Origin: a virus
Length of the DNA stretch: 64,000 nt
Reading direction: 5' to 3' (one strand)
IMG/VR virus record: IMGVR_UViG_3300035698_025300
This document shows, piece after piece, positions 806 to 62,879 of this stretch; position 1 is the first letter of the stretch, and each line of letters opens with the position of its first letter. A program made the position numbers and the translations under genes. Under the pieces are notes generated by a model. It was not told the DNA's origin. It saw nothing but the letters and a program-made list of their open reading frames with translations, and made no database searches.

Positions 806-2468
806 TTTCATTTTTCCTTGTTTTGACAGTATATATTTTATCACCTTTGTACCCACACACAACATTATTCTTTTTGAATAATTTTATTGCTGCGACATCT
901 GGATCTTGAATCGACTTTATGTCGTTTGACGTAGGCTTATGATAAAATAATTCTATTTCATCTTCATTGACATGCACACAAACGCCAGTATCTAAGACTG
1001 CGAAGTTTATGTCAGTTGTCGCTATATTAGTAATTATTCTAACCTTATAGTTCCACTTATTTCCGAATTTAAAAACGAATTTATCGTAAATGCCTTGCTT
1101 TTCGGCTACAACAACCATAACATGGTTGTCATATTTAGCACCTACTATTTTGTATTCGCTTAACTCGTCAATGGCTGATTGGATTGACTTGCCTTTTTCT
1201 GGGAACACCGTAAAATAATAAGACCCTAAAATATCTTGAACAATAACTCCATCAAAAAGATCGGTCGCTTTGTCCAAAACGCTTGCCGCCAAATTGGCAG
1301 AAATGATAACGCTGTTTGGTAATTCAACATATTCTATCTCATAAACCTCATCTTGATTTTTAATATAGATTTCGCCATTATACGACATGATTTTTTCAGC
1401 CTTTATATTAATGGATATAGGCTTACCAGAAAATAAATCATTTGCAGCTAGTTTGCCATCAACTATATCAAATTCAATGGCTTTTTTATTTTTCGCAGTA
1501 ATTACAATATGATTATATTGTTTTGGATATATAGAATTATTAAACATCCAAGAATCTTTAGTGGCGACACATAAAGTTCCTTCTATGTCACAAGCATGCT
1601 GCACATTAGAAGAGTAATCGTGAAGTTCGTTTATATCAAAATTGAGAGTAACGAACTGTGTAGATGGTATATAAAAAACCGTCGCATCAGGCGATATAAC
1701 TGGAGGCTGTATTCTCTCTCCAACCTCGAATATAGCTTCGTACCAATCTCTTAGTTTATTAGGAATAACGCTAAATGGTGAACAAACTTTTGGAACTTTA
1801 ACGTCGTCGCTAAAAACTGAAAGATTATTTAACATTCGATCATTTATATTTTTAAATTGCGTGTGCCTGCCTTTATAGGGGTGTATCCCAATTAGCATCT
1901 GAAAGGTAACAATTCCAAAAGAAAACCAATCCGTCAGTTCTGAGAATTTGGATGCATGTCTATCTCTAACACTTTCCATAATAACTTTCGCCGGGAAATT
2001 TTGTGTTTGATAGCTATCAACATCAATAAAGTAAACTTTGGAAAACTGCTTGTCTATTAAGAAGTTCATCTCATTTAAATCTACAATAATAATGTTATTA
2101 CTATGTATGAAATCTATTTTACTCCTTATGTCCTCAATAAGAGCTAAAGTCTGTTCGTGCGTGATAGAGTTTCTATCGCGGAAAGATTTAGTGAAGAACT
2201 TACATAGAGAATGTGTATTATCTATATACGGCATAGTATAGCCAACATAATCACTACCTTTGTACACCATTTCTTCTGGAGCGATAATGTCACTATGCTT
2301 TAAAACAGAAAGCTCCTGTACTTTAGACTGAGGTATAGGCGAGCTAGAATCGTTATATACTTTTATGGCAGTGTCGCCAAAAGCGTAAATATCTCCTTCG
2401 CCGCCAGATGCAACAAAGTGCTTTTTGGTTAAATTGAAATTTTTCCCGCTCTCAGTCAAAACTTTCAT
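795..2468 (-). CDS. Ser/Thr protein kinase-like protein (TerY-P triad kinase)
   Basis: GGEGDIY glycine loop, AIKVY, IVDLNEMNFL catalytic loop, FIDVDS, DWFSFG, HPYKG. Confidence 0.85.
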   Translation of the reverse strand: MKVLTESGKNFNLTKKHFVASGGEGDIYAFGDTAIKVYNDSSSPIPQSKVQELSVLKHSDIIAPEEMVYKGSDYVGYTMPYIDNTHSLCKFFTKSFRDRNSITHEQTLALIEDIRSKIDFIHSNNIIIVDLNEMNFLIDKQFSKVYFIDVDSYQTQNFPAKVIMESVRDRHASKFSELTDWFSFGIVTFQMLIGIHPYKGRHTQFKNINDRMLNNLSVFSDDVKVPKVCSPFSVIPNKLRDWYEAIFEVGERIQPPVISPDATVFYIPSTQFVTLNFDINELHDYSSNVQHACDIEGTLCVATKDSWMFNNSIYPKQYNHIVITAKNKKAIEFDIVDGKLAANDLFSGKPISINIKAEKIMSYNGEIYIKNQDEVYEIEYVELPNSVIISANLAASVLDKATDLFDGVIVQDILGSYYFTVFPEKGKSIQSAIDELSEYKIVGAKYDNHVMVVVAEKQGIYDKFVFKFGNKWNYKVRIITNIATTDINFAVLDTGVCVHVNEDEIELFYHKPTSNDIKSIQDPDVAAIKLFKKNNVVCGYKGDKIYTVKTRKNENEG

Positions 2469-10354: not shown

Positions 10355-10427
10355 TAGGCGATCCCGGATTCGGACCGGGGACCATCGCGGTGTAAACACG
10401 ACACTCTAGCCACTGAGTTAATCGCCT
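10355..10427 (-). tRNA. tRNA-Val(TAC)
   Basis: Cloverleaf, loop TTTACAC. Confidence 0.9.
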
Positions 10428-10876: not shown

Positions 10877-10959
10877 TCCGGGCAGCAGGAATCGAACCTG
10901 CGTCAGAGCTATGCTCCCACGGTTATCAGCCGTGTGCCTAACCATTCGGCCACACCCGG
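10877..10959 (-). tRNA. tRNA-Ile(GAT) with long variable arm
   Basis: Loop CTGATAA; variable arm GGAGCATAGCTCTGAC. Confidence 0.8.
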
Positions 10960-13946: not shown

Positions 13947-14033
13947 TAGGCCGGACAGGATTCGAACCTGCGATGGTGCTTTCGCAACGCCAGATTAAAA
14001 ATCTGGTCCCTTCAGCCACTCGGACACCGGCCC
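13947..14033 (-). tRNA. tRNA with TTT (Lys) anticodon on a type II, Ser-like body
   Basis: D-arm TGTCCGAGTGGCTGAAGGGA, loop TTTTTAA, 18-nt variable arm, A73. Confidence 0.8.
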
Positions 14034-14643: not shown

Positions 14644-14722
14644 TTATCAACTCCTATTATGAAAGTGTATTACATTATATAGCGAACATGTAAAAACTGC
14701 AATAATAGGACATACTTTATTA

Positions 14723-14794
14723 AGCCGGCTGCGGGAATCGAACCCGCTTATCTGGCTTACAAGACCAGCACATTACCATTTATGCTTAACCGGC
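14723..14794 (-). tRNA. tRNA-Thr(TGT)
   Basis: Loop CTTGTAA. Confidence 0.92.
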
Positions 14795-14805
14795 GTAAAT
14801 AAAAA

Positions 14806-15054
14806 TATCAATACTATAGCCAGGATTCTGTTATCAGCATACATTTATCTCTTTCTGCGTCAACAAAAAGGCAAGAAAACTTGCCGCCCTCGACCCGCCC
14901 ATTGTAGAACAGCTTACCATCTAGGACTGTTTGAGGTTGCATATCGGGTCAATTCCCTATACGTGGTCCAAGCGACTTACATCTCCCACATTAAAGCTAG
15001 ATATGTCCTGAGCTTCCTCTATCACGATCGTGACAGCGTATGCTCGCATTGATA
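14806..15054 (-). ncRNA. rnpB: compact RNase P RNA
   Basis: P1 TATCAATGC/GTATTGATA, P2 AGCATAC/GTATGCT, P3 hairpin, P4 GAGGAAGCTCAGG paired with 3' ACAGAATCCTGGCTATA, helix ATCTAG/CTAGAT. Confidence 0.85.
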
Positions 15055-15057
15055 CAA

Positions 15058-15132
15058 TGGCTAGAGCCGGATTTGAACCGGCGACACCCGCATTTTCAGT
15101 GCGGTGCTACTACCAGACTGAGCTATCTAGCC
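15058..15132 (-). tRNA. tRNA-Phe(GAA)
   Basis: Loop CTGAAAA. Confidence 0.92.
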
Positions 15133-15173
15133 GAAAAGTAAACAACTATTCTTTAAGAGTTTAGGATAAACAG

Positions 15174-20169: not shown

Positions 20170-20175
20170 ATAAGA

Positions 20176-20266
20176 CTCCAGGGGGAGGACTCGAACCTCC
20201 ATACCGTTCTAGACGGATTACGTCTGATTAACAATCAGGTCACTTACCCAATTAGTGTACCCCAGA
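20176..20266 (-). tRNA. tRNA-Asn(GTT) with long variable arm
   Basis: Loop TTGTTAA, 22-nt variable region, U1-A72, G73. Confidence 0.8.
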
Positions 20267-20345
20267 ATATGTAATATTTACTTGTCATTATTTCGCACTG
20301 ATGTTTCTTTTAAACATCTTTCCAGTTTATATCCATCAAAAAAAG

Positions 20346-26973: not shown

Positions 26974-28283
26974 TTATTTTTAGGGGCCTTCTCTTGTCCA
27001 TACCATATTATGTTTTTCTCTTTTTCTTTGGCTCTAAACAATTTTCTGGCTTCGTCAACATTTTCTTCTAGATCTTTTAGTTTAGACTGTACATCTAATT
27101 CCGATAAGCCGGTCACACCATTGTTGACATCTGCCTCAAAACTAGATCTCTCCATTTTAGCCAAGTCTAGATTTTTTCGTAGTCTATCTAGTTCTGCTTT
27201 CACTTTGTCTTTATCGCCTTGATTTTTATTTTTTGCTTTTTTCTTTTTCTTTTCATTTGCTTGACGATCATAAAGCCCTACAGTTCTTTCTTCGTCTATA
27301 TTTGGCATATTTTGAGTTGCTATTTGAATTGCTTCTTCAAAATCAATAAAAGGGAAAACTTTCAATTCTGAATCAGGATTGCAGTTAAATATATTAAATT
27401 GATGCTTTTCGAATACAGGCTTTAGTTCAGTAAGGCGTTCTTTGAGCTTTTCGTATGTGGCATTATTGCCTTTTACTGAACTCGGAGACCTACCCTGATT
27501 AAAATGGTATGTATACTTTTCGCTCATATTGAAGTCAACACCTAACATAAAGACCTTGCGAATTCCTAAAAAGAATAGTAATCTCATAGTTGGAAGAAAA
27601 ACAGATCTTCCTCCGCCCCACTTGGAATGGTCTCCCCAATTAATAGTATCTTCAAACAAGAATTGACTAGCATCGAACTTTTCGTTTCTTCGATAATAAA
27701 AAACGTTTGGACAGTCGCCAACTTTAATGTCCATTTCTTTCCATCTATCGTTGTCAAATAAATTTTTATCGGCGTGTGCAAAAGGAACTATTTTAGTGAT
27801 TTTCGGATCTAACCAAATAGATTTCATAAAATGGGTAGGATTATCTACGCAGCACCACAAGTTAGGACGAAAGCTTTTTGGCGAATTGTTCATACCAATT
27901 GTGATAAATCCTGGACGATTGAGAAGCTCTTTGTTTTCAATTTTTGCGAAGCTGGGGCCGCTAGCTACTAAGAATGCCGATGTTCCCCTATAGATATCGC
28001 CTAGCCACACAGGATGGCCATCTCTAGTAAATAGTATGGGGGGAGACTGTATGTACTGCCCCACGTTAAAGCCCACATGACGCTCTCTCCCGTGTCTTAG
28101 AGAAGTGTGATCGGAAGCATCTCTCCCGTTGCCGCCAGGAGCCTGATGTATAATCCCATCAACTATCTTCCCATCTGGGGTTTGCCTACCAATTTTATGA
28201 TCATTATCTCCTATCTGTTTCTCTTTGGAGACATCAATTTTTCTTACCTCATCCGTCATTATTACTCCCAATAATCTTCCCAA
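26970..28283 (-). CDS. Maf/DUF115-like glycosylation-associated protein with coiled-coil tail
   Basis: FLVASGPSF, IGMNN, LGVDF..HF, FNCNP.S.L..FP. Confidence 0.65.
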   Translation of the reverse strand: MGRLLGVIMTDEVRKIDVSKEKQIGDNDHKIGRQTPDGKIVDGIIHQAPGGNGRDASDHTSLRHGRERHVGFNVGQYIQSPPILFTRDGHPVWLGDIYRGTSAFLVASGPSFAKIENKELLNRPGFITIGMNNSPKSFRPNLWCCVDNPTHFMKSIWLDPKITKIVPFAHADKNLFDNDRWKEMDIKVGDCPNVFYYRRNEKFDASQFLFEDTINWGDHSKWGGGRSVFLPTMRLLFFLGIRKVFMLGVDFNMSEKYTYHFNQGRSPSSVKGNNATYEKLKERLTELKPVFEKHQFNIFNCNPDSELKVFPFIDFEEAIQIATQNMPNIDEERTVGLYDRQANEKKKKKAKNKNQGDKDKVKAELDRLRKNLDLAKMERSSFEADVNNGVTGLSELDVQSKLKDLEENVDEARKLFRAKEKEKNIIWYGQEKAPKNK

Positions 28284-28909
28284 TCATTATTGTATACCTC
28301 TTTAAGCTTGGCCAAATATTGATTTGTTTTAATTTTGCACATCCACAGGTCTCTTCCTGACCCTCCTTTGCAAACTACTCCTTCAAATATATCAAAATCT
28401 CTTCCACTGCGCGTACCATCATATTTTCCTTGACGCACATCATCTGCGAATTTACCATTAAGTTTCCCTTCGTATACAACTCTGGCTATATCTACAACTG
28501 GTTTAAAGATTTTTACAAATTTTTTTGGACTCAAAAGGCCATTTTTATATACCCAGATATCAAACAATATAACATCTTTGGTCTTATCATTTGGTTTGTG
28601 TAATCCCGCGAAAGAATCTCGACCAACGAACTCAGTAAAAGCTGTTATGTTTTCAACCCCCCCCCTAAGTTCTTTATGTTTTTTAAATAAAACATCTAGG
28701 TCTTTAGAATATTTATTCATGAATATAGGTATAGCTTCAGAGAATACTGTATCGGTATGATCGAACAGCCTTCGCCTTGTGCCGAATTTATAAAATCCTC
28801 TTTTCTTGCTCCACTCCCATCTAAGGTTAGAACCATCGTATTTCTCAAAAGCAATACAATGATCGCTGGGGCAGTTTTTGGATCCTGGTATTTTGGGGTA
28901 GGCTTTCAT
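28262..28909 (-). CDS. ATP-dependent RNA ligase-like nucleotidyltransferase
   Basis: YPKI, motif I EKYDGSN, EFVG, LFDIW, EGVVCK, KIK. Confidence 0.7.
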   Translation of the reverse strand: MKAYPKIPGSKNCPSDHCIAFEKYDGSNLRWEWSKKRGFYKFGTRRRLFDHTDTVFSEAIPIFMNKYSKDLDVLFKKHKELRGGVENITAFTEFVGRDSFAGLHKPNDKTKDVILFDIWVYKNGLLSPKKFVKIFKPVVDIARVVYEGKLNGKFADDVRQGKYDGTRSGRDFDIFEGVVCKGGSGRDLWMCKIKTNQYLAKLKEVYNNDWEDYWE

Positions 28910-30400: not shown

Positions 30401-30435
30401 CCTTTCAGTATCTTTTTTAATTTTATTCCACAAAA

Positions 30436-30785
30436 TGGAGCCGAGGGGAGTCGAACCCCTGTCCAGTGCATACTTCACAATTAGCATCTACGTTCATAGG
30501 TATTTTATTTATATAATCGCATCAAAGGCATAAAATAACAAAAACCCATATCAACGATGACAACTTATTGTTCGGAAGCTATCGCTGTCATGTCACTTCC
30601 TAAGCTCTACTATTGGCATCTTGTCCAGACCATAGAGCAAACCCGGCAAGATGTGCTACTTAAATTTAAGCAGCGGCTTTTGCGTTGTTGGCATTTAAGT
30701 GCCTTGGATCTGTTTAACGACTCCTTTATCCAAAGTCGGAACGCAACTAATAGCTCTTCATACCTGTCGAAACCAAAGCGGCCCC
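30436..30785 (-). ncRNA. ssrA: tmRNA, tag (A)NNAKAAA
   Basis: 5' GGGGCCGCTTTGGTTTCGAC, acceptor GGGGCCG/CGGCTCC with G3-U70, T-arm GGGTTCGACTCCC, tag frame at 30692-30666. Confidence 0.92.
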
Positions 30786-33313: not shown

Positions 33314-33925
33314 TCAATCCGCAACTACCCAGTCTATTTTACTGCTTTTTCCAATATAACTAAATATTTTTTTATATTCTTCAAAATTCTCATCGTCAAA
33401 ACAGCAGATAGTTACTTCGTCTAAATACGTTCCTTCAGGATGACATATGTGGTGCAGCGCTCTATTTAGTGAATTCATTGCAATATCGGCTGCTATATCT
33501 TTTGGAAAACAGAAAGCCCCTGTACTTATACAAGGAAAAGCTATACTTTTTAACCCCTGCTTACTAGCCAGTGTCAAGCAGTTATTATAACACAATTCTA
33601 AATCACTTAAACACTTTGGTTTTTCTTTTTCAGAAAAAACGGGGCCTACGGTATGTATTACATATTTCGCTTTTAAATCATAACCGCCAGTAATACGAGC
33701 CTCACCAACGGGACAGCCGTAAAGATTTAAACATTCTCCTAATAGTTTTGGGCCAGCCGCTCGATGAATTGCACCATCCACCCCTCCACCGCCAGTTAGT
33801 TGTTCGTGGGCAGCGTTAACCATGGCATCTACAGAAAGTTCTGTAATATCTCCTCTCGTGAGTAGTATTTTAGCTCCTACTGTTCGCTTATTTACTGACA
33901 TTTCCATATTGATATCTTCGGTCAT
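33314..33925 (-). CDS. macrodomain ADP-ribose hydrolase (YmdB/MacroD-like)
   Basis: GDIT, VNAAH..LTGGGGVDGAIHRAAG, IHTVGP, FPCISTGAF. Confidence 0.92.
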   Translation of the reverse strand: MTEDINMEMSVNKRTVGAKILLTRGDITELSVDAMVNAAHEQLTGGGGVDGAIHRAAGPKLLGECLNLYGCPVGEARITGGYDLKAKYVIHTVGPVFSEKEKPKCLSDLELCYNNCLTLASKQGLKSIAFPCISTGAFCFPKDIAADIAMNSLNRALHHICHPEGTYLDEVTICCFDDENFEEYKKIFSYIGKSSKIDWVVAD

Positions 33926-43117: not shown

Positions 43118-43191
43118 TGATTCTATGAAGAGATAAATCGGCCCAGCGAAAGCGATTGTAGGTTCGATTCCTATCTTGCTCAGTAATTTTT

Positions 43192-43276
43192 GGAAGTGTG
43201 ACCGAGTGGATAATTGTAGCAGACTGCAAATCTGCCGAGCGTATGCCCTTCGTAAGTTCGAATCTTACCGCTTCCG
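43192..43276 (+). tRNA. tRNA with GCA (Cys) anticodon, long variable arm and G73
   Basis: Loop CTGCAAA. Confidence 0.8.
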
Positions 43277-43284
43277 TTTCTATT

Positions 43285-43493: not shown

Positions 43494-43577
43494 GGCACGG
43501 TGGCTGAGTGGTTAAAGCGGCGGTCTGCAAAATCGTTACGCCCGCAAGGGGCGTGGGTTCGAATCCCACCCGTGCCT
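43494..43577 (+). tRNA. tRNA-Cys(GCA) with long variable arm, U73
   Basis: Loop CTGCAAA. Confidence 0.85.
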
Positions 43578-45752: not shown

Positions 45753-46053
45753 AAAAGAATTAGATAAAGAATTATGGGAAAAAGCTTCAAAAGAGGGCGA
45801 GATGTCTTTTTTAAGAATGAGCAGGGCAATGAAAGACCCTCCTTTGGGAATGTCTGATAAAGTCAAGGCTAAATATGAAGAGTTAAAACTTTTCGGCTTT
45901 ATAGAAGCTCTGCCTATAGACTCTGCTCACGCTAAAGACGCATACACTGCGCTGTTCGCACAGTCAGAGTACGATCAACTTTATAAAGATAAGAATGATC
46001 CCACGAAGCTAAGCAAATGGGAAAGGATTACCGGACAGCGCCTTAAGAGTTAA
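45745..46053 (+). CDS. hypothetical protein
   Basis: ORF coupled to the previous gene. Confidence 0.65.
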   Translation: MAKKELDKELWEKASKEGEMSFLRMSRAMKDPPLGMSDKVKAKYEELKLFGFIEALPIDSAHAKDAYTALFAQSEYDQLYKDKNDPTKLSKWERITGQRLKS

Positions 46054-48019
46054 GTATCTGTTCTTTAAGCTCTATAAATTTCTTGCTTAGAACGAATGGT
46101 AGTTGACTTTCTCTGTGGTCATAACCAAAGGCTCTTTTGCTTGTGACGATGATCGGAGGGGCTTGTACTCTTTTGAATACGTTATTGTTCATTTGTTTCA
46201 TGAACCATTCTAAATCAGTAACAAATTCTTTCGGGTCTCCAAGATTCCATCTATCATATAGTTTTTGGCTTATGTTTAGATTTTCGCATATACGGCCTTG
46301 AATATACCATTCCATTACCAATTCTGGAGCGGTGTTTTTATATGTCATGAAGATTTCTAGAAGTTGGTCGTGATAGGCAAATTTCATTGGATCAATTTGC
46401 TCATCTTTAAGCTCCGCTGATGGGGCAACTTCGAAATTAAATAGATCATCAGGTAAGAGGCTCTCTGGAATAATTTCTTCCATGAATATGTCGCTATTTA
46501 GATATCTGGCCATCTCGAAAACTTCCTCTTTGGTGAGATCTCCTAGCGGGCTAATGGCCCCACCGACATCACCGTAGAGGGTTGCATAGCCTAGCGCTGT
46601 TTCAAGTTTGTTTCCGTTGTTTGTAAACAACGCTCCCATTTTTGCGGCTATGCCGGCTAGAATTGATGAGCCTCTGGTTCTGGCGTAAATATTTTCTATA
46701 ACTAGGCTGCTGGCATCTTCGAATTGGGGGTCATAGCCAGGCCCTAATCGTAGGTTAAGTTCACCTGAATCCCATCCTCCAGCTTTATTAACGGCTATAA
46801 GTGTATCGGTTGCTACTGTTGTTATTGGGATTATGCGATATCTTATTCCCAGCTTATCTGCTATATCTTTAGCAATGTTTTTTGTAGCACTTGAGTTATA
46901 TTTGCTAGGCATATTAATTGCCATGACATTTTTTTCTCCAACGGCCTTAACAAGAAGGCACGCGACAACTGAGCTGTCTATCCCACCAGAAAGGCCAATG
47001 ACAAATTTTGGATGGTCTTTTTGTCCAATTATGTCTTTCATGTGCTGAATGCCACGTATCAATGTTAAATACTTCTCAGCTATTTTGTTATTTTTTCTTT
47101 TTCTTTGTGTCGCGCATATTATGTCAATCATTTCGGTAGAAATTACCATTAGTTTTTCTTTATATTGATCTATTACATAGTCTGCCAACTCTCCCTTTCG
47201 GTTATATACACTACTTCCTCCATCGAACGTGATGATATTTTTGCCGTTATTCTGGGCTCCCACACAGTTGACATAATAGAATTGTGGCATGGGTTTATCC
47301 AGAGGGGCTAATTCTTTGTAGAGGAACTTTATAGCGTTGTGGCGAGCTTTATCTTTACCGTAGGTCCAAGGGGATGCTGATAAATTGATGATAATGGTGG
47401 CTCCATTATTAACGGCATTTTTAGTTGGATTTTTAGCTTTTCCTTCTCGCACATAATCTTCACACCATAGATCTTCACAGAGTTCTACTCCAATTAACTC
47501 ATCTTTGAATTTGAAAGGAGCAAAGATATTAAAGCAGCCGTTTTCCCATAATTGATAAGCTGATGTGAAATATCTTTGATCGTCAAAGAATCTGTAATTA
47601 GGAAGTAGGGCTTTTACTTGTAGTCCTTTTGGGACGAATTTGGAATATTTGTCATGGCCTGATTTCTTAACAGGCTCTCCATTGTAATAGAAATAAGCAG
47701 CATTATATTTTCTAGTCCTGCCATCTTCGTTTGGGAACCAAAAGCCGGATTCATCGTGTTCGCTAAGGAAGACGTTACCGAAAATAACCCCGATTCCCAT
47801 GGACGCCTTAGCGATTTGCTCGTTAAAGCTCATAAGCCATCGGCAATATTCGTCATCATTGAATTTATCGCCAAGAAAATATCCACCTACGCACATTTCA
47901 GGGAAAGATATAAGATTTGCTCCGCGAGCTTTCGCTTCATTAATCATGCGAAGCATTTTATATACATTTTGTTGTGGCTGTCCTGAGACGACATCCATTT
48001 GACCTAGAGCAATGTTCAT
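46043..48019 (-). CDS. nadE: glutamine-dependent NAD+ synthetase
   Basis: N-terminal CN-hydrolase (FPEM, ELCEDLW, SASP) plus synthetase IGLSGGIDSS, GNKLE.ALGYATLYGD, PSAEL. Confidence 0.95.
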   Translation of the reverse strand: MNIALGQMDVVSGQPQQNVYKMLRMINEAKARGANLISFPEMCVGGYFLGDKFNDDEYCRWLMSFNEQIAKASMGIGVIFGNVFLSEHDESGFWFPNEDGRTRKYNAAYFYYNGEPVKKSGHDKYSKFVPKGLQVKALLPNYRFFDDQRYFTSAYQLWENGCFNIFAPFKFKDELIGVELCEDLWCEDYVREGKAKNPTKNAVNNGATIIINLSASPWTYGKDKARHNAIKFLYKELAPLDKPMPQFYYVNCVGAQNNGKNIITFDGGSSVYNRKGELADYVIDQYKEKLMVISTEMIDIICATQRKRKNNKIAEKYLTLIRGIQHMKDIIGQKDHPKFVIGLSGGIDSSVVACLLVKAVGEKNVMAINMPSKYNSSATKNIAKDIADKLGIRYRIIPITTVATDTLIAVNKAGGWDSGELNLRLGPGYDPQFEDASSLVIENIYARTRGSSILAGIAAKMGALFTNNGNKLETALGYATLYGDVGGAISPLGDLTKEEVFEMARYLNSDIFMEEIIPESLLPDDLFNFEVAPSAELKDEQIDPMKFAYHDQLLEIFMTYKNTAPELVMEWYIQGRICENLNISQKLYDRWNLGDPKEFVTDLEWFMKQMNNNVFKRVQAPPIIVTSKRAFGYDHRESQLPFVLSKKFIELKEQILNS

Positions 48020-48029
48020 TTTTGTCCTT

Positions 48030-48773
48030 TTATTTTCCTGTGACGGCGGTTATGAAGTCGCAAGCATCTAATACGTTATTTACTGATGGGAAATCGCATG
48101 TGCAGTTTTTCGTGCAGATTACTTGTTTGACTGCATTTTTGTCCAGTTCAGCAGGGGCTGTGTCTACAGCACAGAATCGAACTCCGATCTTCTGCCAGTT
48201 TTTTACGAGATCATCAATAGGCAGACCTGGTAGTTCTTTTACCGCATCTATGACAACTACGACATTGTAACCTCTGTTTGCTAGCCCCACTACCGCATCG
48301 TTAACACAGACATTTGTTGCAACCCCATAAACGAATATGGTTGTTTGTTTTGTTGCAACATCATTAAGGACTTTTTCTGTGAAAGGGTTGCCATCGAATA
48401 CATTAAATGCGTCTTTTAGTAATAGTATGTCGTCGGCTAGCTTAACTTCCTCCGAACTGTAAGATTGATCTTCCCAATCTATTACCAGGGCGTGTTCACC
48501 TGGGAACGTTTCTTCGATTAGGTTTACCCCGTCTGTATTCCTCATGCAGTGTGGGGGGAATTTCGACATAAAATCTGGTTCGTCTGATAGCTCTTCAGAG
48601 TCTTTGTTGTGACAGTCTGCTGTGCTGATGACTGTAATGTCCTGCTTTTTCGATAGTTTCGTTAGAAAAACTAGGTTGGCCTTTATTCCACCCGCTCCGT
48701 CAATTGATAGTTTCCCATCAGAATTCATAAAATCTTTTTGCGTGTCTACGTTCCAGAAAATAGCCTTATTCAT
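48030..48773 (-). CDS. pncA: nicotinamidase
   Basis: VDTQKDFM, DCH, FPPHC, GVATNVCV; operon context. Confidence 0.88.
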   Translation of the reverse strand: MNKAIFWNVDTQKDFMNSDGKLSIDGAGGIKANLVFLTKLSKKQDITVISTADCHNKDSEELSDEPDFMSKFPPHCMRNTDGVNLIEETFPGEHALVIDWEDQSYSSEEVKLADDILLLKDAFNVFDGNPFTEKVLNDVATKQTTIFVYGVATNVCVNDAVVGLANRGYNVVVVIDAVKELPGLPIDDLVKNWQKIGVRFCAVDTAPAELDKNAVKQVICTKNCTCDFPSVNNVLDACDFITAVTGK

Positions 48774-49620
48774 TTATATTCTCCTGTTGTTTAAGTCTAT
48801 AGAGTTTTTTATTTAATCGGTATAAATATGATCTACCGAATTTATTATTTTCAAGTCCATCATATAGCGTTTGAGGAATGTCGTTTTTTATTTCTTTGCA
48901 ATTAACAGAGCAGCCCATAGCTATAGTTGCTACCGTGTCTACATCGCCTTGATATGAGATGCACCGTTTAAGCACACCACTCATGGTATTATAGTCTTTG
49001 ATTGCCGTGATTGCAGCACGAACACCCATAAAAGATGTTGTTCCTACTCTGCCTGCCCATCTTTTGTTCCAATGCCCAGACTTAATTGTATCATCTAAAA
49101 ATACACCTATATCTTTTTTGAGTCCCAAATTGTAAATGAAGTAGTGACTCATGAGGGAGACTGCACAAGATGCACTCAACCCTTTTGGTGTATTGTGCGT
49201 AACTTCTGACTGCAAGGTTGCGTATTCTATTACTCTATTAATGTCTGGAAGTATCCCTATTGGACAGCCCCTCATGCTTGAGCCGTTCTTTGTGCTCTCA
49301 GGTATTATCTTGTCTAGGAATTCTTTTCCGTTTTTAACGGAAACAAGAAATTTTAAGAACCCCCGGGCGTATCCATTCCTGGGGTCACGGCGAAAACAAT
49401 TAACGAAAGAATCGGCTATATTTTCTTTTGTCCATTCTTTTTTAGCTATTAACAATTCTGCTATAGCAATACTCATTTGGGTGTCATCGGTATATGATCC
49501 TGGCATAGAGTCGTGGCTGGGGTGACTAAAGTATTGACTTAAATCATTAGGGCCTGGTTGTTTTCTTGCAAACTCAAAAGCTGCACCATATGCATCGCCA
49601 ATTGCTAATTCTACTAGCAT
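48766..49620 (-). CDS. ADP-ribosylglycohydrolase (DraG/ARH family)
   Basis: AIGDAYG, YTDDTQM, NGSSMR, GDVDTVA. Confidence 0.92.
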   Translation of the reverse strand: MLVELAIGDAYGAAFEFARKQPGPNDLSQYFSHPSHDSMPGSYTDDTQMSIAIAELLIAKKEWTKENIADSFVNCFRRDPRNGYARGFLKFLVSVKNGKEFLDKIIPESTKNGSSMRGCPIGILPDINRVIEYATLQSEVTHNTPKGLSASCAVSLMSHYFIYNLGLKKDIGVFLDDTIKSGHWNKRWAGRVGTTSFMGVRAAITAIKDYNTMSGVLKRCISYQGDVDTVATIAMGCSVNCKEIKNDIPQTLYDGLENNKFGRSYLYRLNKKLYRLKQQENINE

Positions 49621-49622
49621 TT

Positions 49623-50807
49623 TTATTCCACCTCACTGCATAGCGGCTCATTAAAGAATGTCCATTTTGCAACTTTTAGCGCGTCTTCGTCTCCTGTTGC
49701 TTTGCCTGGGTTGTCGCTAAGTTTTATTACTTCTATTCCATTGACAGATCGTAGTTTGATAACCATATTTAGTGGCGTAGTATTGTCAAAGTCATTTGTA
49801 AAGTGTGTTCCAATTCCAAAGGCTACTTTGATTTTATCGGCAAACTCTTTTTGTATTTGTATAGCACTGTCTGTATTCAGTCCGTCGCTGAAAACTATAG
49901 TTTTTGCACTTGGATCGATACCAAGACTCTTATACTTTTCAATAACTTTATTTCCAAATTCTATAGGGTCACCGCTATCATGCCTGACGCCATCGTAAAG
50001 TTTTGCTAGGCGTAGATTAAAGTTTTTGAAAAATACGTTGCTTCCATATGTGTCTGTTAAGGCGATTCCTAGATCGGCGTTATAGACTCGAACCCAGTTC
50101 TGTAGGGCAAAATAGTTTGCATTTCTTAATCCTTCTAGTGCGGAACAGCCCATGATCCATTCGTGGGCCATTGTTCCAATTGGAGTGACATTGTATTTTC
50201 TGGCAAAATATAAATTGCTAGTTCCGATAAAACCCGTTCCTGTTGATAGGATTTTTATGGCTTTATCTTGCGTCTCGAAGCTTAATCGCCTTCTCGTGCC
50301 GAAGTCGGCATATTTACACTTCTCTAGGTCTAGTTTTTCGGTTTTGATTTTTGTTTTTTCTAGGAAGGTCGTGTTGATCTGTTCTTCCCACGAATTGTCG
50401 AAATTGAGAAAGTACCCTTCGCTGATCATAGCCATCAATGGAACTTCCCAGAGGATGGTTTTGTGCCATGGGCCAGTTATCGCGATATTAAGTTCACCGT
50501 CCTCTATTGTTGCTTTGACTTCTTTTGGATCAAATCTGTAGTTTTTGAGGTAATTTAAATACGAGGTTTTAAAATAAGGGCAGTTTTTCTTGAGCCACTC
50601 GATATCCGAGTCGGTAACTTGTAGATTTTTAAAGTCCTGTATTGACCCTTTTAATTGACCAAGAAATTCTTCTGAAAATTTGTGTTCTCCACGATTTGTG
50701 AATTTGTAAGTGGCTTCAGCGTCTGGGAATAGCTCCAATACAGCCTGCTGCATCGTAAATTTGTAAAGATCTGAATCGAGGATGGATGTTGGTTTTGCTG
50801 TTAGCAT
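49623..50807 (-). CDS. pncB: nicotinate phosphoribosyltransferase
   Basis: LDSDLYKFTMQQA, DFGTRRR, GTSN, GTMAHEW, GVRHDSGDP, KLSDNPGK. Confidence 0.95.
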   Translation of the reverse strand: MLTAKPTSILDSDLYKFTMQQAVLELFPDAEATYKFTNRGEHKFSEEFLGQLKGSIQDFKNLQVTDSDIEWLKKNCPYFKTSYLNYLKNYRFDPKEVKATIEDGELNIAITGPWHKTILWEVPLMAMISEGYFLNFDNSWEEQINTTFLEKTKIKTEKLDLEKCKYADFGTRRRLSFETQDKAIKILSTGTGFIGTSNLYFARKYNVTPIGTMAHEWIMGCSALEGLRNANYFALQNWVRVYNADLGIALTDTYGSNVFFKNFNLRLAKLYDGVRHDSGDPIEFGNKVIEKYKSLGIDPSAKTIVFSDGLNTDSAIQIQKEFADKIKVAFGIGTHFTNDFDNTTPLNMVIKLRSVNGIEVIKLSDNPGKATGDEDALKVAKWTFFNEPLCSEVE

Positions 50808-55097: not shown

Positions 55098-55241
55098 AAA
55101 AATAAAAGTATAAGGTTTGATTGTATGGGGCTTTGTACAAAAGAGCAGTTTTCGTCACGGAAGAAGAAGAGGATTCATTTCGGCCGATTTGTATGGATTG
55201 TATTGCAGGCCAACTTTTTGAAACAATTAATGGAGAAAAAT

Positions 55242-58142
55242 ATGTCAGGATTTTATTCTTATGAAGAGGCGGTCGAAGCCTCTTTGGAATATTTTAACGG
55301 AGACCGACTAGCAGCAGAGGCTTTTGTGGGGAAGTATGCTTTAAAGGACAAAGAAGAGCAATACTTAGAAAAAGACCCCGATCAAATGCATCGACGGGAA
55401 GCTAGGGAATTTTATAAGATAGAAAAGAAATACCCCAACCCTCTTTCCGAAGAAGAAATTTATTCTTACTTGAGCAATTTCGAATATATTATACCAGGCG
55501 GTTCTCAAATGTCTGGTATTGGTAATGATTTTAAGGTTCAGACTTTAGGGAATTGTTATGTTGTGAAACCCCCATATGATAGTTATGGCGGTTTGATGTA
55601 TTCTGATCAGCAGCTAGCTCAACTAATGAAGCGCCGAGCCGGTGCGGGAATTGATATTTCTCCATTACGCCCAAAGAATATGCTCGTTGCAAACGCTGCT
55701 GGGACCACAGACGGCATTGCTGTTTTTATGGAGAGATACTCCAATACTTGCAGGGAAGTTGCACAGAATGGACGTAGGGGGGCTCTGATGATTACCCTTA
55801 ATGTTCACCACCCAGAAATACTTAATTTTATAAACGTAAAAAGAGATTTAAATAAGGCTACCGGAGCTAATATCTCTGTTCGCTTTACGGACGAGTTTAT
55901 GAATGCTGTTGAGAATGATGAAAAATATAAACTTCGTTGGCCAGTTGACTCGAAAGAGCCAGTGGTTTCTGAGGATATTTCTGCAAAGCTTGTTTGGGAA
56001 GCTTTCGTTGATGCTTCTTGGACTTGCGCTGAGCCTGGGTGTCAATTTATAGATGCTATGAACAATAATTCTCCATCGCATTGTTATGGAGTAGTAGATG
56101 AACGATTTTACAATATAACTACAAATCCTTGCGTAACTGGAGGCACAGAGGTATTAACCGATAGAGGCAATATCCCTATAAGAGAGATCGTTAAAAATGG
56201 ATTTGATAATTATAAAGTTTATACTTATGATATATGTAGTGGCAATATAGAGACCGAAAGCATTGTTTTTGGGGGCTTGACTAAAGAGGAGGCTGATGTT
56301 ATAGAACTGGAACTGGATGATGGCGAAGTTTTGCGATTGACTCCTGATCATAAGGTTTATACTGAGAATCGGGGATACGTTAAGGCTTCAATGTTGGGCG
56401 AAGAAGATGTTATATTAAAAGTTGAGAGAATGGAAACAAAAAAGATTGTTAGAAAAAGAATAAAAAAAAATAGAGTCATTGAAAATGAAGATGTGTACGA
56501 TTTGACCGTAGAGAAAAATCATAATTTCTTCGCGAATGGAATATTGGTTCATAATTGCGGTGAAATTATTATGGGGGTTGACTCTTGCAGGCTGATGTCT
56601 ATTAATCTATATTCTTTCGTTGATAATCCTTTCGCCGAGAACGCTGTATTTGATTTTGAAAAGTTAGAAAAAATTTCAGGGATAGGTCAAAGGCTTATGG
56701 ATGATGTCGTTGATATGGAGATTGTTAAAATACAGAAAATCATAGAAAAAGTAAAATCGGATCCTGAACCAGAACATATTAAACAAATAGAATTAGATAT
56801 GTGGCAAGATTATTTGGACACATGCCAGTTAGGTCGCCGAACAGGTTTGGGGATTATGGGTCTGGCTGATGCTATGGCTGCTGTTAATGTTAAGTTTGGA
56901 TCTGAAGAATCTATAAAGATGACGGGCGAAATTTATAAAGTTTTAAATAGAGGGGCATATAAAGAGTCTATTAAGTTGGCAGAAGAAAGAGGGCCATTCC
57001 CTCTTTACAATAAAAAGATTGAAAAAGATAATGAATATCTAAATAGGGTTTTAGAAGCTCACGGATTGAAAAGTAAACACAATAAGGTTGGCCGTCGAAA
57101 CATCGCCCTACTCACTACTGCCCCAACAGGGACAGGAGCGTTAGAGGCTCAGGTCTCTTCTAGCGGAGAGCCAGTTTTTAGGGTGTCTTATAAGAGGAGG
57201 CGCAAAATCAACCCCTCAGATCGGCAGGCTACGGTAGATTTTGTAGATGACAGAGGGGATAAATGGCAAGAATACGTGGTGTATCATTCAAAGTTCCAAA
57301 TATGGATGGATGTTTCTGGAAAAGAAGAAATAGAAGATTCTCCTTACTTTCAGGCGACAGCCGACGATGTTGATTGGGGGGCTTCTGTAAAGATGCAGGC
57401 TGAAGCTCAAAAATGGATTTGCCATTCAATATCTAAGACGTGTAATCTCCCCAAAGAGGCGAGCAAAGAACTCGTTTCAGATATTTATATGGACGCTTGG
57501 AAGTCTGGCTGCAAGGGGTTTACTATTTATAGAGATGGTTGCAGAGACGGCGTGTTATTAGACCTGGAATCTGCTAATAATGCAGGTGGTATCACTAAAA
57601 ACGATGCTCCAAAACGCCCAAAGAAATTACGTGCAGACGTTTATCACATTAAGATTACTAAAAAATTAGATAAACCACGAACATTTGACTATTTAGTTTT
57701 AGTAGGATTGTTGAATGATGAGCCATATGAGGTTTTTGTGATGGAGAACGGTTCACTTCCGAGACATTACAAAAAAGGCGTAATTATCAAAGTGAAACGT
57801 GGACAATATCGTTTGGAGTTAGATGGGGATACAAAAAATAAATATTCTGTAAATAATATTTTAGATAGTACCACAGAGTTCGAAGACTCGTTAACCAGGT
57901 TAACGTCTACGGCCATTCGTCATGGAGTCGATATGTCATATGTTGTTCAGCAATTAGAAAAAGCAGAAGGTGATATGTGGTCATTTAGCAAGGCTGTGTC
58001 TAGGGCTTTAAAGAAGTATATAAAAGATGGAACCCATGTCACAGGAGATGTTTGCGGAAATCCAGATTGCGGCTCTAACGATTTGGTCCGGACGGAAGGC
58101 TGCGTGACTTGTGTTAGTTGTGGTCATAGTAAATGCTCTTAG
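55242..58142 (+). CDS. nrdJ: class II (B12-dependent) ribonucleotide reductase with mini-intein
   Basis: LGNC, RRGA, TTNP|intein|CGEI, RRTGLG, TAPTG, SISKTCN, C-terminal Zn ribbon; likely start MSGFYS. Confidence 0.92.
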   Translation: MSGFYSYEEAVEASLEYFNGDRLAAEAFVGKYALKDKEEQYLEKDPDQMHRREAREFYKIEKKYPNPLSEEEIYSYLSNFEYIIPGGSQMSGIGNDFKVQTLGNCYVVKPPYDSYGGLMYSDQQLAQLMKRRAGAGIDISPLRPKNMLVANAAGTTDGIAVFMERYSNTCREVAQNGRRGALMITLNVHHPEILNFINVKRDLNKATGANISVRFTDEFMNAVENDEKYKLRWPVDSKEPVVSEDISAKLVWEAFVDASWTCAEPGCQFIDAMNNNSPSHCYGVVDERFYNITTNPCVTGGTEVLTDRGNIPIREIVKNGFDNYKVYTYDICSGNIETESIVFGGLTKEEADVIELELDDGEVLRLTPDHKVYTENRGYVKASMLGEEDVILKVERMETKKIVRKRIKKNRVIENEDVYDLTVEKNHNFFANGILVHNCGEIIMGVDSCRLMSINLYSFVDNPFAENAVFDFEKLEKISGIGQRLMDDVVDMEIVKIQKIIEKVKSDPEPEHIKQIELDMWQDYLDTCQLGRRTGLGIMGLADAMAAVNVKFGSEESIKMTGEIYKVLNRGAYKESIKLAEERGPFPLYNKKIEKDNEYLNRVLEAHGLKSKHNKVGRRNIALLTTAPTGTGALEAQVSSSGEPVFRVSYKRRRKINPSDRQATVDFVDDRGDKWQEYVVYHSKFQIWMDVSGKEEIEDSPYFQATADDVDWGASVKMQAEAQKWICHSISKTCNLPKEASKELVSDIYMDAWKSGCKGFTIYRDGCRDGVLLDLESANNAGGITKNDAPKRPKKLRADVYHIKITKKLDKPRTFDYLVLVGLLNDEPYEVFVMENGSLPRHYKKGVIIKVKRGQYRLELDGDTKNKYSVNNILDSTTEFEDSLTRLTSTAIRHGVDMSYVVQQLEKAEGDMWSFSKAVSRALKKYIKDGTHVTGDVCGNPDCGSNDLVRTEGCVTCVSCGHSKCS
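56130..56555 (+). mobile_element. mini-intein (142 aa, no endonuclease)
   Basis: CVTGGTEVLT...TPDHKV...VYDLTV..NHNFFANGILVHN followed by Cys. Confidence 0.92.
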
Positions 58143-60986: not shown

Positions 60987-62879
60987 ATGGCTAAAAAGAA
61001 AGTAAACATATCTGATATATTAAAAAAAGCGCAAGATGATATTATATTGTCTTCCACGAAGAGCGACAGCTATATACCAGATATTATAACATTTTGTTAT
61101 GATAAGAAGTTTTTAGATTTAAAGAGAAGAAACATTACATTAAGACCATTCCAGAGTATTATTTTGAAGGTCTTTTATCGTGGCAGTAGGGGGAACGAAG
61201 ACTTAAAGTTAGCACCAGAAGAGATAGAGCTTTGCCAGCAGCACGGTTTAGACTCAGACGAGAAGGGTGATGTTTTAACTAAATACGAATCCAATAAGGT
61301 GTTTAGGGAATTGGTTCTTGTCTGGGGGCGTCGATCAGGCAAAGACTTTTTATCTTCTATTATTGCTGCATATGAGGCTATGAGGCTTTTAGAAATAGAG
61401 GGTGGAGATCCATATCAATACTATGGAATATCTTCTGCTTCCCCAATTAGTATTTTAACGGTGGCTACTGCAAAAGAGCAGGCAACGCTGGCTTTCCAAG
61501 AGATTAAAGATAGAATTTTGGGGTCTCAATATTTTAAGGATAGAATCGGTCCTGACGGTGTGGGCTCTGATAAAATTCGACTAATGACCCCACAAGATTT
61601 CGAAGAAAATAAGGATTTAGCAGAGCGTAAACTTCCTTTGAAAAGGGGCTCGGTTGTTGTAGAGGTTGGTCACTCTAACTCTGACTCGCTTTTGGGAAAG
61701 GGTATTTTTGTTTTGATCTTGGATGAAGTCGCCGCATATAAGACTACTGGCTCTTCGTCGTCTGGAGAGCGTATATATACTGCTCTTTCGCCTTCATTGA
61801 ACACTTATAAAAGAGACGAGCCAGTGTTGAATGACGACGGCAAGAAAATGTTTAACGAGAATGGCGAGGTTATAACTAAAGTTGTTTATGATTCTAAAAT
61901 AGTTAGCATTTCTTCGCCTAGAGGTGAAGAAGGTATATTCTATAATATTTTCGTTAATTCCAATAAGGTTCCTGGTCGTCTAGCTTGTAGGCTACCTACT
62001 TGGGTAGTTAGTCCGGGATTAACCGAAGAGTCTTTGCGAGAAACAAACTCTAACATGACGGATGAAGAGTTTATGATGGAATTTGGTGCAGAGTTCTCAG
62101 GTACTGGCGGTGATGCCTTCTTCCCCAGGCGAAATGTGGAGGAGTGTTTTAGTCCAGCATTGTCTATTAGGAAGGTGGGCGAGACTGGTCTTATATATTT
62201 TGGACATTTAGACCCCTCAACATCGAGTCATAATTACGCATTTGTTATTTCTCACAGAGAACTATTTTTTAATAAGGAAACTAATAAGAACGACTTTTTA
62301 GTTAAAGTAGATCATATAAAGTTTTGGCACCCAAGCGCTGAATCTCCTATTAATGTAGACGAGGTTGACCAATATGTTATAGATATGAAGAGGAAATTCC
62401 ATTTTGGGCTGATTACTTATGACCAATGGAATTCTACTGGGAGTATTAATAAGTTAAGGAAACACGGTATCCCAGCTAAGATGACCAGATTCACTGATAG
62501 ATATAAGATGCAGATATATTCTGAATTATATAATTTAGTTGTTTCTGGAAGAATGATAATACCAATGCATTTGTTATTGAAGAATGAAATGTTAAATCTG
62601 AGAAGGCGTTTTACTCCTACGGGATATAGGGTTTACCCGAATCCAGATGGGGATACACATACAGATGATATCGTTGATGCTTTGGCGGGCTCAGTATTTG
62701 CTACATTTGAAAGCGATCAAAAGACTCTGCCCGGAGGTAGGCTAGTTAATTTCGGTGGAACTCCATCGCAGAACGCTAGAATGTGGCAGTCAATGAGTGG
62801 TCCAATGGGTTACGGGACAGGGCAGCAGGTTTCGCATCAGTTAGAGCGTATAAATTCCTGGCCAAATAGAAAAAGGTAA
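60987..62879 (+). CDS. terL: terminase large subunit
   Basis: Walker A WGRRSGK, Walker B LILDE, ISSP, nuclease HLDP...YDQW...DDIVDA. Confidence 0.9.
   Translation: MAKKKVNISDILKKAQDDIILSSTKSDSYIPDIITFCYDKKFLDLKRRNITLRPFQSIILKVFYRGSRGNEDLKLAPEEIELCQQHGLDSDEKGDVLTKYESNKVFRELVLVWGRRSGKDFLSSIIAAYEAMRLLEIEGGDPYQYYGISSASPISILTVATAKEQATLAFQEIKDRILGSQYFKDRIGPDGVGSDKIRLMTPQDFEENKDLAERKLPLKRGSVVVEVGHSNSDSLLGKGIFVLILDEVAAYKTTGSSSSGERIYTALSPSLNTYKRDEPVLNDDGKKMFNENGEVITKVVYDSKIVSISSPRGEEGIFYNIFVNSNKVPGRLACRLPTWVVSPGLTEESLRETNSNMTDEEFMMEFGAEFSGTGGDAFFPRRNVEECFSPALSIRKVGETGLIYFGHLDPSTSSHNYAFVISHRELFFNKETNKNDFLVKVDHIKFWHPSAESPINVDEVDQYVIDMKRKFHFGLITYDQWNSTGSINKLRKHGIPAKMTRFTDRYKMQIYSELYNLVVSGRMIIPMHLLLKNEMLNLRRRFTPTGYRVYPNPDGDTHTDDIVDALAGSVFATFESDQKTLPGGRLVNFGGTPSQNARMWQSMSGPMGYGTGQQVSHQLERINSWPNRKR

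Follow-up and report, generated by a model that had tools for sequence, protein, structure and literature searches.

Only two ribozymes are universal, and RNase P is one of them; whether a virus can carry its own copy of the RNA subunit, and in what form, is the question raised by a short gene lying between two tRNA genes in the 64,000-nt stretch of DNA analyzed here (the window), which comes from a large salt-lake phage. Searches of the literature brought up no account of a virus-encoded RNase P RNA, and a 2024 review of RNase P mentions none. One report of an RNA in transferred tRNA clusters (PMC6582537) was considered as a precedent and rejected, the RNA in question being GOLLD RNA and not RNase P RNA. 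The RNA of the window is quite probably a phage miniature derived from type A RNase P RNA, which would act as a working catalytic subunit together with host RnpA in the maturation of phage tRNAs.

A sequence-only reading had placed a compact, phage-encoded RNase P RNA of about 250 nt in a tRNA operon at 14806-15054. The helix ends put the gene at 14805-15055 on the minus strand, and the P1, P2 and P3 helices, the P4 pseudoknot and the terminal ACAGAA motif named in that reading are all present in the sequence, essentially where it had put them (Table 1). No ORF of at least 60 aa overlaps the gene on either strand. Scanning metagenomes for the P4 strands of the window yielded two relatives, L190 and L196, which are 80% and 70% identical to the window RNA, respectively.

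Table 1. Elements of the RNase P RNA gene and its flanking tRNA genes, in 5' to 3' order of the minus strand; positions are those of the window.
Feature	Position	Strand	Remarks
tRNA-Phe(GAA), upstream	15058..15132	-	No encoded CCA; ARAGORN and Rfam (64.4 bits); same neighbor in L190
Whole RNase P RNA gene	14805..15055	-	251 nt, 5' start of P1 to 3' end of P1; from helix ends and family profile
P1, 5' strand GUAUCAAU	15048..15055	-	Pairs with AUUGAUAU, 14805-14812
P2, 5' strand AGCAUAC	15038..15044	-	Pairs with GUAUGCU, 14836-14842
P3 hairpin CUGUCAC-GAUC-GUGAUAG	15019..15036	-	3 of 7 pairs compensatory (window, L190, L196)
J3/4 AGGA and P4 5' strand AGC[U]CAGGA with bulged U	15006..15018	-	P4 covaries in the family
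P5, 5' strand CAUAUC	15000..15005	-	Pairs with 14940-14945
P6 pseudoknot, 5' strand UAGCUU	14994..14999	-	Pairs with AAGCUG in the P17 loop, 14909-14919
Mini specificity domain: P7 AUGUG/CACGU, GGA, GAU-GUAA-GUC, loop GCUUGGAC, extra hairpin GGG-AAUUGA-CCC	14946..14991	-	
J5/15 CAA, P15 CCUC/GAGG, L15 AAACAG and CGGGUC (GGU), P16 UCC/GGG, P17 UAGA/UCUA	14888..14939	-	
Two distal hairpins, GGCAAG-UUUU-CUUGCC and P18-like CUUUUUG-UUGACG-CAGAAAG	14851..14885	-	Relatives form hairpins of their own here
J18/2 AGAUAAAUG (14850-14842), P2 3' strand, J2/4 GAUAACAGAA, P4 3' strand UCCUGGCU	14817..14850	-	Matches RF00010 consensus blocks
tRNA-Thr(UGU), downstream	14723..14794	-	ARAGORN and Rfam (61.6 bits); same neighbor in L190

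The core of the fold is marked by a two-strand motif, GAGGAAGCUC from 15019 and ACAGAAUCCUGGCUA at 14831-14817, which has a single occurrence in the 64-kb window and is never seen in 100 dinucleotide-preserving shuffles. The P4 5' segment GAGGAAGCUCAGGA is followed 175 nt downstream by the 3' segment ACAGAAUCCUGGCUA, and P4 itself reads AGC[U]CAGGA/UCCUGGCU, with the bulged U at its canonical place. P1 and P2 enclose the core, the P3 hairpin precedes P4, and P2 crosses P4 in the pseudoknot topology. In strand-swap tests, P1 of the window reaches -11.1 kcal/mol with its own strands and -6.3 kcal/mol with swapped ones (3 of 54 swaps were as good), and for P2 no swap out of 54 was as good; across the family, the own strands of P1 and P2 are better than swapped strands by about 5 kcal/mol and rank in the best 5% for 31/55 and 33/55 RNAs, respectively.

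Comparison with the two relatives supports the same helices. RNAalifold on the three sequences gives 60 pairs, 17 of them with double compensatory change: 11 fall in P1 (five of its 10 pairs), P2 (three of seven) and P3 (three), and others lie in P16, P17 and the extra hairpin of the mini specificity domain. The P4 5' strand is drawn there as a local hairpin because RNAalifold cannot draw pseudoknots, and this local hairpin breaks in L196. By a scripted count over the same three sequences, 17 of 18 cells are paired in P5, with double changes at four pairs, and likewise 17 of 18 in P6, with one compensatory pair (CCGC/GCGG in L196); the window also offers an AUCUAG/CUAGAU pairing that competes with P6. 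The distal hairpins have another sequence in each relative at the same places, for example CACA-GAAA-UGUG at the P18 position of L196, and the two hairpins that follow P15 in the window have no GNRA loops; these columns are misaligned by MAFFT, and column counts there are uninformative. The nested-only minimum free energy of the window RNA is not exceptional (z = -1.68).

The check proposed with the sequence-only reading, a match to the Rfam RNase P covariance models, failed for the window itself. At gathering scores (100 bits for RF00010) the Rfam matches in the window comprise 34 tRNAs and a tmRNA but no RNase P family, and at E<=10 on the 451 nt from 14700 to 15150 no RNase P model of any kind matches, RF02357 included. 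Nothing related is present in the GenBank phage collection by distant blastn of the RNA or megablast of 12 kb. The failed check is nevertheless overridden by three kinds of evidence, namely homologues that do match RF00010, a profile match to the window and covariation within the family.

The family was collected from IMG/VR by searching for the two P4 strands. The exact strands of the window occur in three contigs, and a degenerate pattern, which leaves five P4 pairs free without requiring complementarity and covers P4-to-P4 spacings of 160-190 nt, occurs in 60. In 51 of the 56 distinct pattern matches, the window included, each of the five free positions forms a Watson-Crick or G-U pair, where chance gives 0.0074 per match; the pair types found are AGC/GCU, AGU/GCU, AAG/CUU, AAC/GUU, AGG/CCU and AAU/AUU. 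By this pairing test, three pattern loci, representing two distinct sequences, are clear false positives.

Many of the relatives match RNaseP_bact_a with E-values from 1e-13 to 3e-31. End-to-end RF00010 matches are seen in L028 (105.5 bits, E=3e-31, above gathering), L023 (94.7), L040 (89.4), L020 (80.9), L034 (74.7), L010 (70.7), L047 (66.1), L003 (56.7, carrying the window's own P4 variant) and L056 (53.7 bits). A profile HMM of 26 window-like relatives, built with the window left out, matches 15051-14806 on the minus strand at E=2e-29; when all pattern columns and both P4 strands are removed, the interior-only profile still finds 14994-14840 (-) at E=2.1e-10, its sole match in the 64 kb. 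Taken together, the profile matches and the RF00010-matching relatives place the window RNA, as a diverged member, within a family that shades over into recognizable class A RNase P RNA, and judged by these matches it is a homologue of the bacterial type A RNA. Since current annotation misses the subtype of the window entirely, the family needs a covariance model of its own.

Conservation outside the search pattern bears on whether such an RNA still functions. In a 50-sequence alignment the conserved blocks are GCAA (J5/15), a P15 of 3-4 bp, AAACAG and CGGGUN (L15, with GGU) and AGAUnAAUG (J18/2); each of these is an RF00010 consensus block, and the window has all of them. P6 covaries in the family (CCGAGAA/UUCUCGG, GCAAGGGA/UCCCUUGC, GGAGAG/CUCUCC), as does P15 (CAC/GUG, GCC/GGU, CUC/GAG, CGC/GCG, UUC/GAA, UGC/GCA). 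In the family-wide swap test P6 reaches -12.5 kcal/mol with its own strands against -9.5 kcal/mol with swapped ones and ranks in the best 5% for 9/39 RNAs, the anchoring used for P6 and P15 placing L15 wrongly in the window sequence itself. The J5/15 AA, the L15 GGU and the J18/2 AG..AU are invariant or nearly so in the 50 sequences; in the E. coli ribozyme the J5/15 adenosines, the L15 GGU and J18/2 are the residues in contact with the site of cleavage and with the 3' end of the tRNA. Invariance of functional residues outside the pattern is expected of an enzyme that binds and cuts pre-tRNA and not of a relic. A decaying remnant of a captured host rnpB, carried as a functionless passenger in the tRNA array, would fit an RNA that Rfam does not recognize and from which large parts of the ancestral molecule are deleted, but it would not keep its functional residues invariant, nor would P1, P2, P3, P5, P6, P16 and P17 be maintained by compensatory changes between relatives that are 70-80% identical, and dozens of unrelated viral contigs carry an RNA reduced in this same way; a remnant is therefore very hard to credit.

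The part of the molecule that has been reduced is the specificity domain, which normally grips the tRNA elbow. Its reduction had been noted from the sequence alone, and it is borne out: the domain of the window is about 55 nt long and comprises P7, a 10-nt hairpin, an 8-nt loop and one extra hairpin. The usual P7-P14 domain with its J11/12 and J12/13 modules (CR-II, CR-III) is without counterpart between the P5 strands of the window, and the RF00010 consensus blocks of this domain (the ACAGAAA and GGGUGAAA stretches) have none in the window RNA, so that efficient tRNA recognition is not guaranteed. The P7 core GUG/CAC is invariant in the window, L190 and L196; the extra-hairpin loop GAAUUGA is kept in L196, and in L190 a single base of it is changed; a GNRA-capped hairpin stands at the same place in relatives (GAC-GAAA-GUC, GAC-GCGA-GUC, GAU-GCAA-AUC), and a GGGAGA block together with the GNRA-capped hairpin recurs in the family.

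Reduction has taken different forms among the phage RNAs. Some keep a J11/12-like GGGUGAAA module and are without P15-P17, and others keep GGGUAAG and P15-17 and are without P18, the differently reduced architectures being those of L028, L029, L022, L055 and L014 on one side and L013, L018-L020, L023 and L040 on the other. Several differently reduced architectures point to repeated, independent miniaturization, and the reduction of P RNA in phages accordingly seems, from this comparison of sequences, to have happened several times.

Among the known systems closest to the RNA is class A (RF00010; E. coli M1 RNA, Thermotoga maritima P RNA). The catalytic-domain layout is shared, with P1, P2, P3, P5 and the P6 pseudoknot, as are GAGGAA (CR-I) and the bulged U of P4, GCAA, P15 with L15 CGGGU, AGAUnAAUG (J18/2, CR-IV), and ACAGAA (CR-V) with the P4 3' strand. 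However, class A RNAs are about 330-400 nt long against 251 nt for the window RNA, and have P8-P14 with the conserved specificity-domain modules where the window has P7 and one short GNRA-capped hairpin. The P4 of the window reads AGC/GCU in place of AAG/CUU, a variant that had already been picked out from the sequence. Unlike class A genes, that of the window is invisible to Rfam and encoded by a phage in a tRNA array, apparently without an accompanying rnpA.

Two other reduced forms are also close. Archaeal type T P RNA is described as having almost no specificity domain. It belongs to another lineage (RF02357), being cellular and working with archaeal proteins, whereas the window RNA has the bacterial L15 GGU, J18/2, a P18-like hairpin and P6. 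In the Thermoproteaceae, type T RNase P RNA is a natural, diminutive form that was missed by existing covariance models (PMC3579882). The E. coli type A C-domain cleaves substrates without the specificity domain, and the efficiency of the construct Eco CP RPR depends on P6-type pairing, P18 being dispensable (PMC5839562). The likeness to the phage RNA is a catalytic domain that does without the normal specificity domain; in the phage RNA, P6 is retained and covaries, and the distal hairpins are degenerate. The difference is that Eco CP RPR is a laboratory construct of reduced efficiency, whereas the gene of the window occurs naturally, is conserved and carries a small replacement for the specificity domain. 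With the substrate-contact residues fixed, P4 and P6 covarying and cleavage by a C-domain published, a working catalytic subunit is the best reading of the phage RNA.

Compact P RNAs are also found in cellular genomes. The compact pattern occurs in at least 120 genome contigs, about half of which pass the P4 test, mostly as solitary genes in CPR, Elusimicrobia and DPANN assemblies; those passing include Shapirobacteria loci (L089, L099, L126, L133 and others) and DPANN loci, nearly all outside tRNA arrays. The compact P RNA is the only RNase P RNA in 5/5 genomes checked (four Elusimicrobia MAGs and one Paludibacteraceae MAG) and scores 129-150 bits with RF00010; in the Elusimicrobia MAGs (L122, L112, L144, L166) it measures 242-262 nt. 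These RNAs resemble that of the window in overall length and catalytic core, but they keep specificity-domain modules (ACAGAAAC.., GUAAGAGUGAAAAGGCUAAAC) and give at best a weak match to the phage-subtype profile. The Elusimicrobia RNAs were for this reason rejected as the same design in cells. Only two of the genome-contig matches have the phage-like form, and both lie in dense tRNA arrays: L161, on a contig of the Acidimicrobiia MAG UBA5794 with 15 tRNAs per 8 kb, and L174, on a contig of the uncultured archaeon LFW-28 with 21. Both contigs are probably phage contigs or prophages.

The existence of these cellular forms raises the alternative that the window is not phage DNA and that the RNA is a reduced rnpB belonging to the cell itself, like those of Elusimicrobia or CPR bacteria. 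The gene content argues otherwise. The window carries a terminase large subunit at 60987-62879, 36 tRNAs (ARAGORN) and a tmRNA, genes for NAD synthase, a nicotinamide phosphoribosyltransferase-like protein and a Dam-type methylase, and many orphan ORFs, and Rfam finds no rRNA in it. NAD-salvage and RNR genes are typical of large phages. Based on the terminase, the tRNAs and tmRNA, an RNA ligase, the NAD and RNR genes and the orphan ORFs, the source element is a large tailed phage. Relatives of the RNA moreover lie in IMG/VR contigs, two of them with terminal repeats, and the cellular compact forms keep specificity-domain modules and are themselves barely matched to the subtype of the window, which leaves a cellular origin extremely improbable even with compact P RNAs as sole copies in several MAGs.

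Several other genes of the window were recorded in passing. An RNR large subunit interrupted by an intein is encoded at 55125-58142 (+), an NAD synthase/phosphoribosyltransferase cluster at 46043-50807 (-) and a macro-domain protein (E=8e-44) at 33314-33925 (-). The tmRNA, at 30433-30785 (-), scores 142 bits and has the tag peptide ANNAKAAA. The ORF with an RNA ligase domain (PF09414, E=1e-8) lies at 28262-28909 (-), near a tRNA-Gly and the tmRNA, and its place beside the tRNA set suggests a possible function in tRNA repair.

The position of the gene suggests how the RNA could be made. The tRNA-Phe ends about 2-3 nt before P1, and about 10 nt separate the end of P1 from tRNA-Thr. The gap between tRNA-Phe and P1 is too short to hold a promoter, and no minus-strand candidate upstream of the RNA is convincing, so that co-transcription with the tRNAs is the simplest reading. 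L190 has the same gene order as the window (Phe-P RNA-Thr-Lys-Lys-Thr-Trp-Ala). Among 71 distinct family RNAs, 40 are accompanied by at least three tRNAs within 2 kb, for 33 the distance to a tRNA on the same strand is no more than 120 nt, and the tRNAs around the 71 are never mainly on the opposite strand; some homologues lie hundreds of nucleotides to kilobases from the nearest tRNA, or at loci with no detected tRNA. The RNA would thus be transcribed as part of a tRNA operon in the order tRNA-Phe, P RNA, tRNA-Thr, and its position between them suggests release by tRNA-processing cuts: its 5' end would arise from 3' processing of tRNA-Phe, and its 3' end when RNase P cuts at the start of tRNA-Thr.

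The same closeness of tRNAs, 2-10 nt away on both sides, could be taken to mean that the element works in cis as a structured spacer, serving host RNases as a substrate or landing pad and helping to separate the tRNAs of a polycistronic precursor, since tRNA-processing cuts would release the P RNA in any case. A spacer would nevertheless have no reason to conserve the active-site architecture of RNase P, and homologues are also found far from tRNAs or at loci without a detected one; the idea is decidedly improbable next to that of a catalytic RNA released from the tRNA precursor.

As for what the RNA would act on, it had been proposed that it is tuned to tRNAs of non-standard shape. This finds no support: both flanking tRNAs are canonical (64 and 62 bits), and similarly reduced P RNAs in about 55 other viral contigs lie beside tRNAs that mostly score normally in Rfam. 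Some tRNA genes elsewhere in the window are long, those for tRNA-Ile, Lys, Asn and Cys at 10877-10959, 13947-14033, 20174-20267, 43191-43277 and 43494-43577 measuring 83-94 nt, which implies long variable arms or inserts that are unusual for these identities; a tRNA-Val at 10355-10427 is called by ARAGORN and missed by Rfam. None of the 36 tRNA genes of the window encodes CCA, and 31 of the 36 are directly followed by T. Genes of this kind fit endonucleolytic 3' processing and CCA addition in the host, and pairing of the L15 GGU with the tRNA end would be possible only if CCA were added before 5' cleavage.

A protein partner was sought in the same DNA. No match to RnpA (PF00825) was obtained among the 48 ORFs scanned against Pfam or PHROGs in the window, which covers just 64 kb of the phage; nothing convincing appears among its small basic ORFs, and none was found in five large viral relatives (four at least 90% complete, two with terminal repeats), although RnpA was recovered by this search from 10 of 14 control bacteria. 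As no phage RnpA was found, the host protein is the most likely partner, and the question is raised whether host RnpA is hijacked by a phage RNA. The absence also lends itself to an explanation in which the RNA is a non-catalytic decoy or regulator, its protein-binding core soaking up host RnpA or pre-tRNA and thereby redirecting or starving host tRNA maturation. With no RnpA in the tested ORFs of the window or in the five relatives, the RNA must compete for the host protein, if any is used, and the near loss of the specificity domain would suit such a role. A sponge, however, needs no invariant J5/15 adenosines, L15 GGU, bulged U in P4 or P6, all of which are kept across about 50 divergent sequences, and a decoy is for this reason unlikely.

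The preferred reading remains a catalytic one. The RNA has a whole catalytic domain, with the residues for binding the cleavage site and the 3' end of the tRNA, and has lost nearly all of the domain that grips the elbow; after release from the tRNA precursor it would most likely assemble with host RnpA and, as an extra or replacement catalytic subunit, strip the 5' leaders from the 36 or more phage pre-tRNAs and from pre-tmRNA during infection. In bacteria tmRNA is itself an RNase P substrate. The logic would be that of phage tRNA arrays and tmRNA, in which copies of host translation RNAs are carried, with the difference that P RNA is an enzyme of tRNA maturation and not its substrate.

Extended to the whole family, it is on balance likely that tailed phages widely encode an RNase P ribozyme in several independently reduced forms, with the window RNA representing a new structural class in which a tiny GNRA-capped module replaces the tRNA-elbow domain; working with host RnpA or free of protein, such RNAs would make tRNA maturation independent of the host P RNA, perhaps with relaxed substrate needs. 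If true, this would be the first virus-encoded RNase P as well as a natural minimal ribozyme of bacterial type. A conserved phage version would add a tRNA-processing ribozyme to the translation parts carried by large phages (tRNAs, tmRNA), and would provide a natural experiment in how little RNA a bacterial-type RNase P needs; a specificity domain that is almost gone, with P6 and the substrate contacts kept, agrees with deletion studies of the E. coli ribozyme.

Some minor features of the locus and its relatives can be added. Inside the P RNA, at 14870-14885 (-), the hairpin GGCAAG-UUUU-CUUGCC is followed by UUUUUGUU and fits the intrinsic-terminator consensus. Two terminator-like sites in the region are within shuffled expectation, and a hairpin followed by a U-run is present at this site in L190 and absent in L196; the feature could reflect attenuation or truncation of the full-length RNA and the downstream tRNAs, or it could be coincidence. 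In L058, a match to freshwater-1 RNA at 880-942 (-) scores 66 bits (threshold 72) and lies in the same tRNA array as a compact P RNA. Short contigs from four salt-lake metagenome runs are identical in sequence, with no variants. In one salt-lake run (X1), contig record 2 (355 nt) matches the window at 14817-14850 only (J2/4 and the P4 3' strand), with four differences, and on this partial match it probably carries a second P RNA, a related one belonging to another phage of the same lake.
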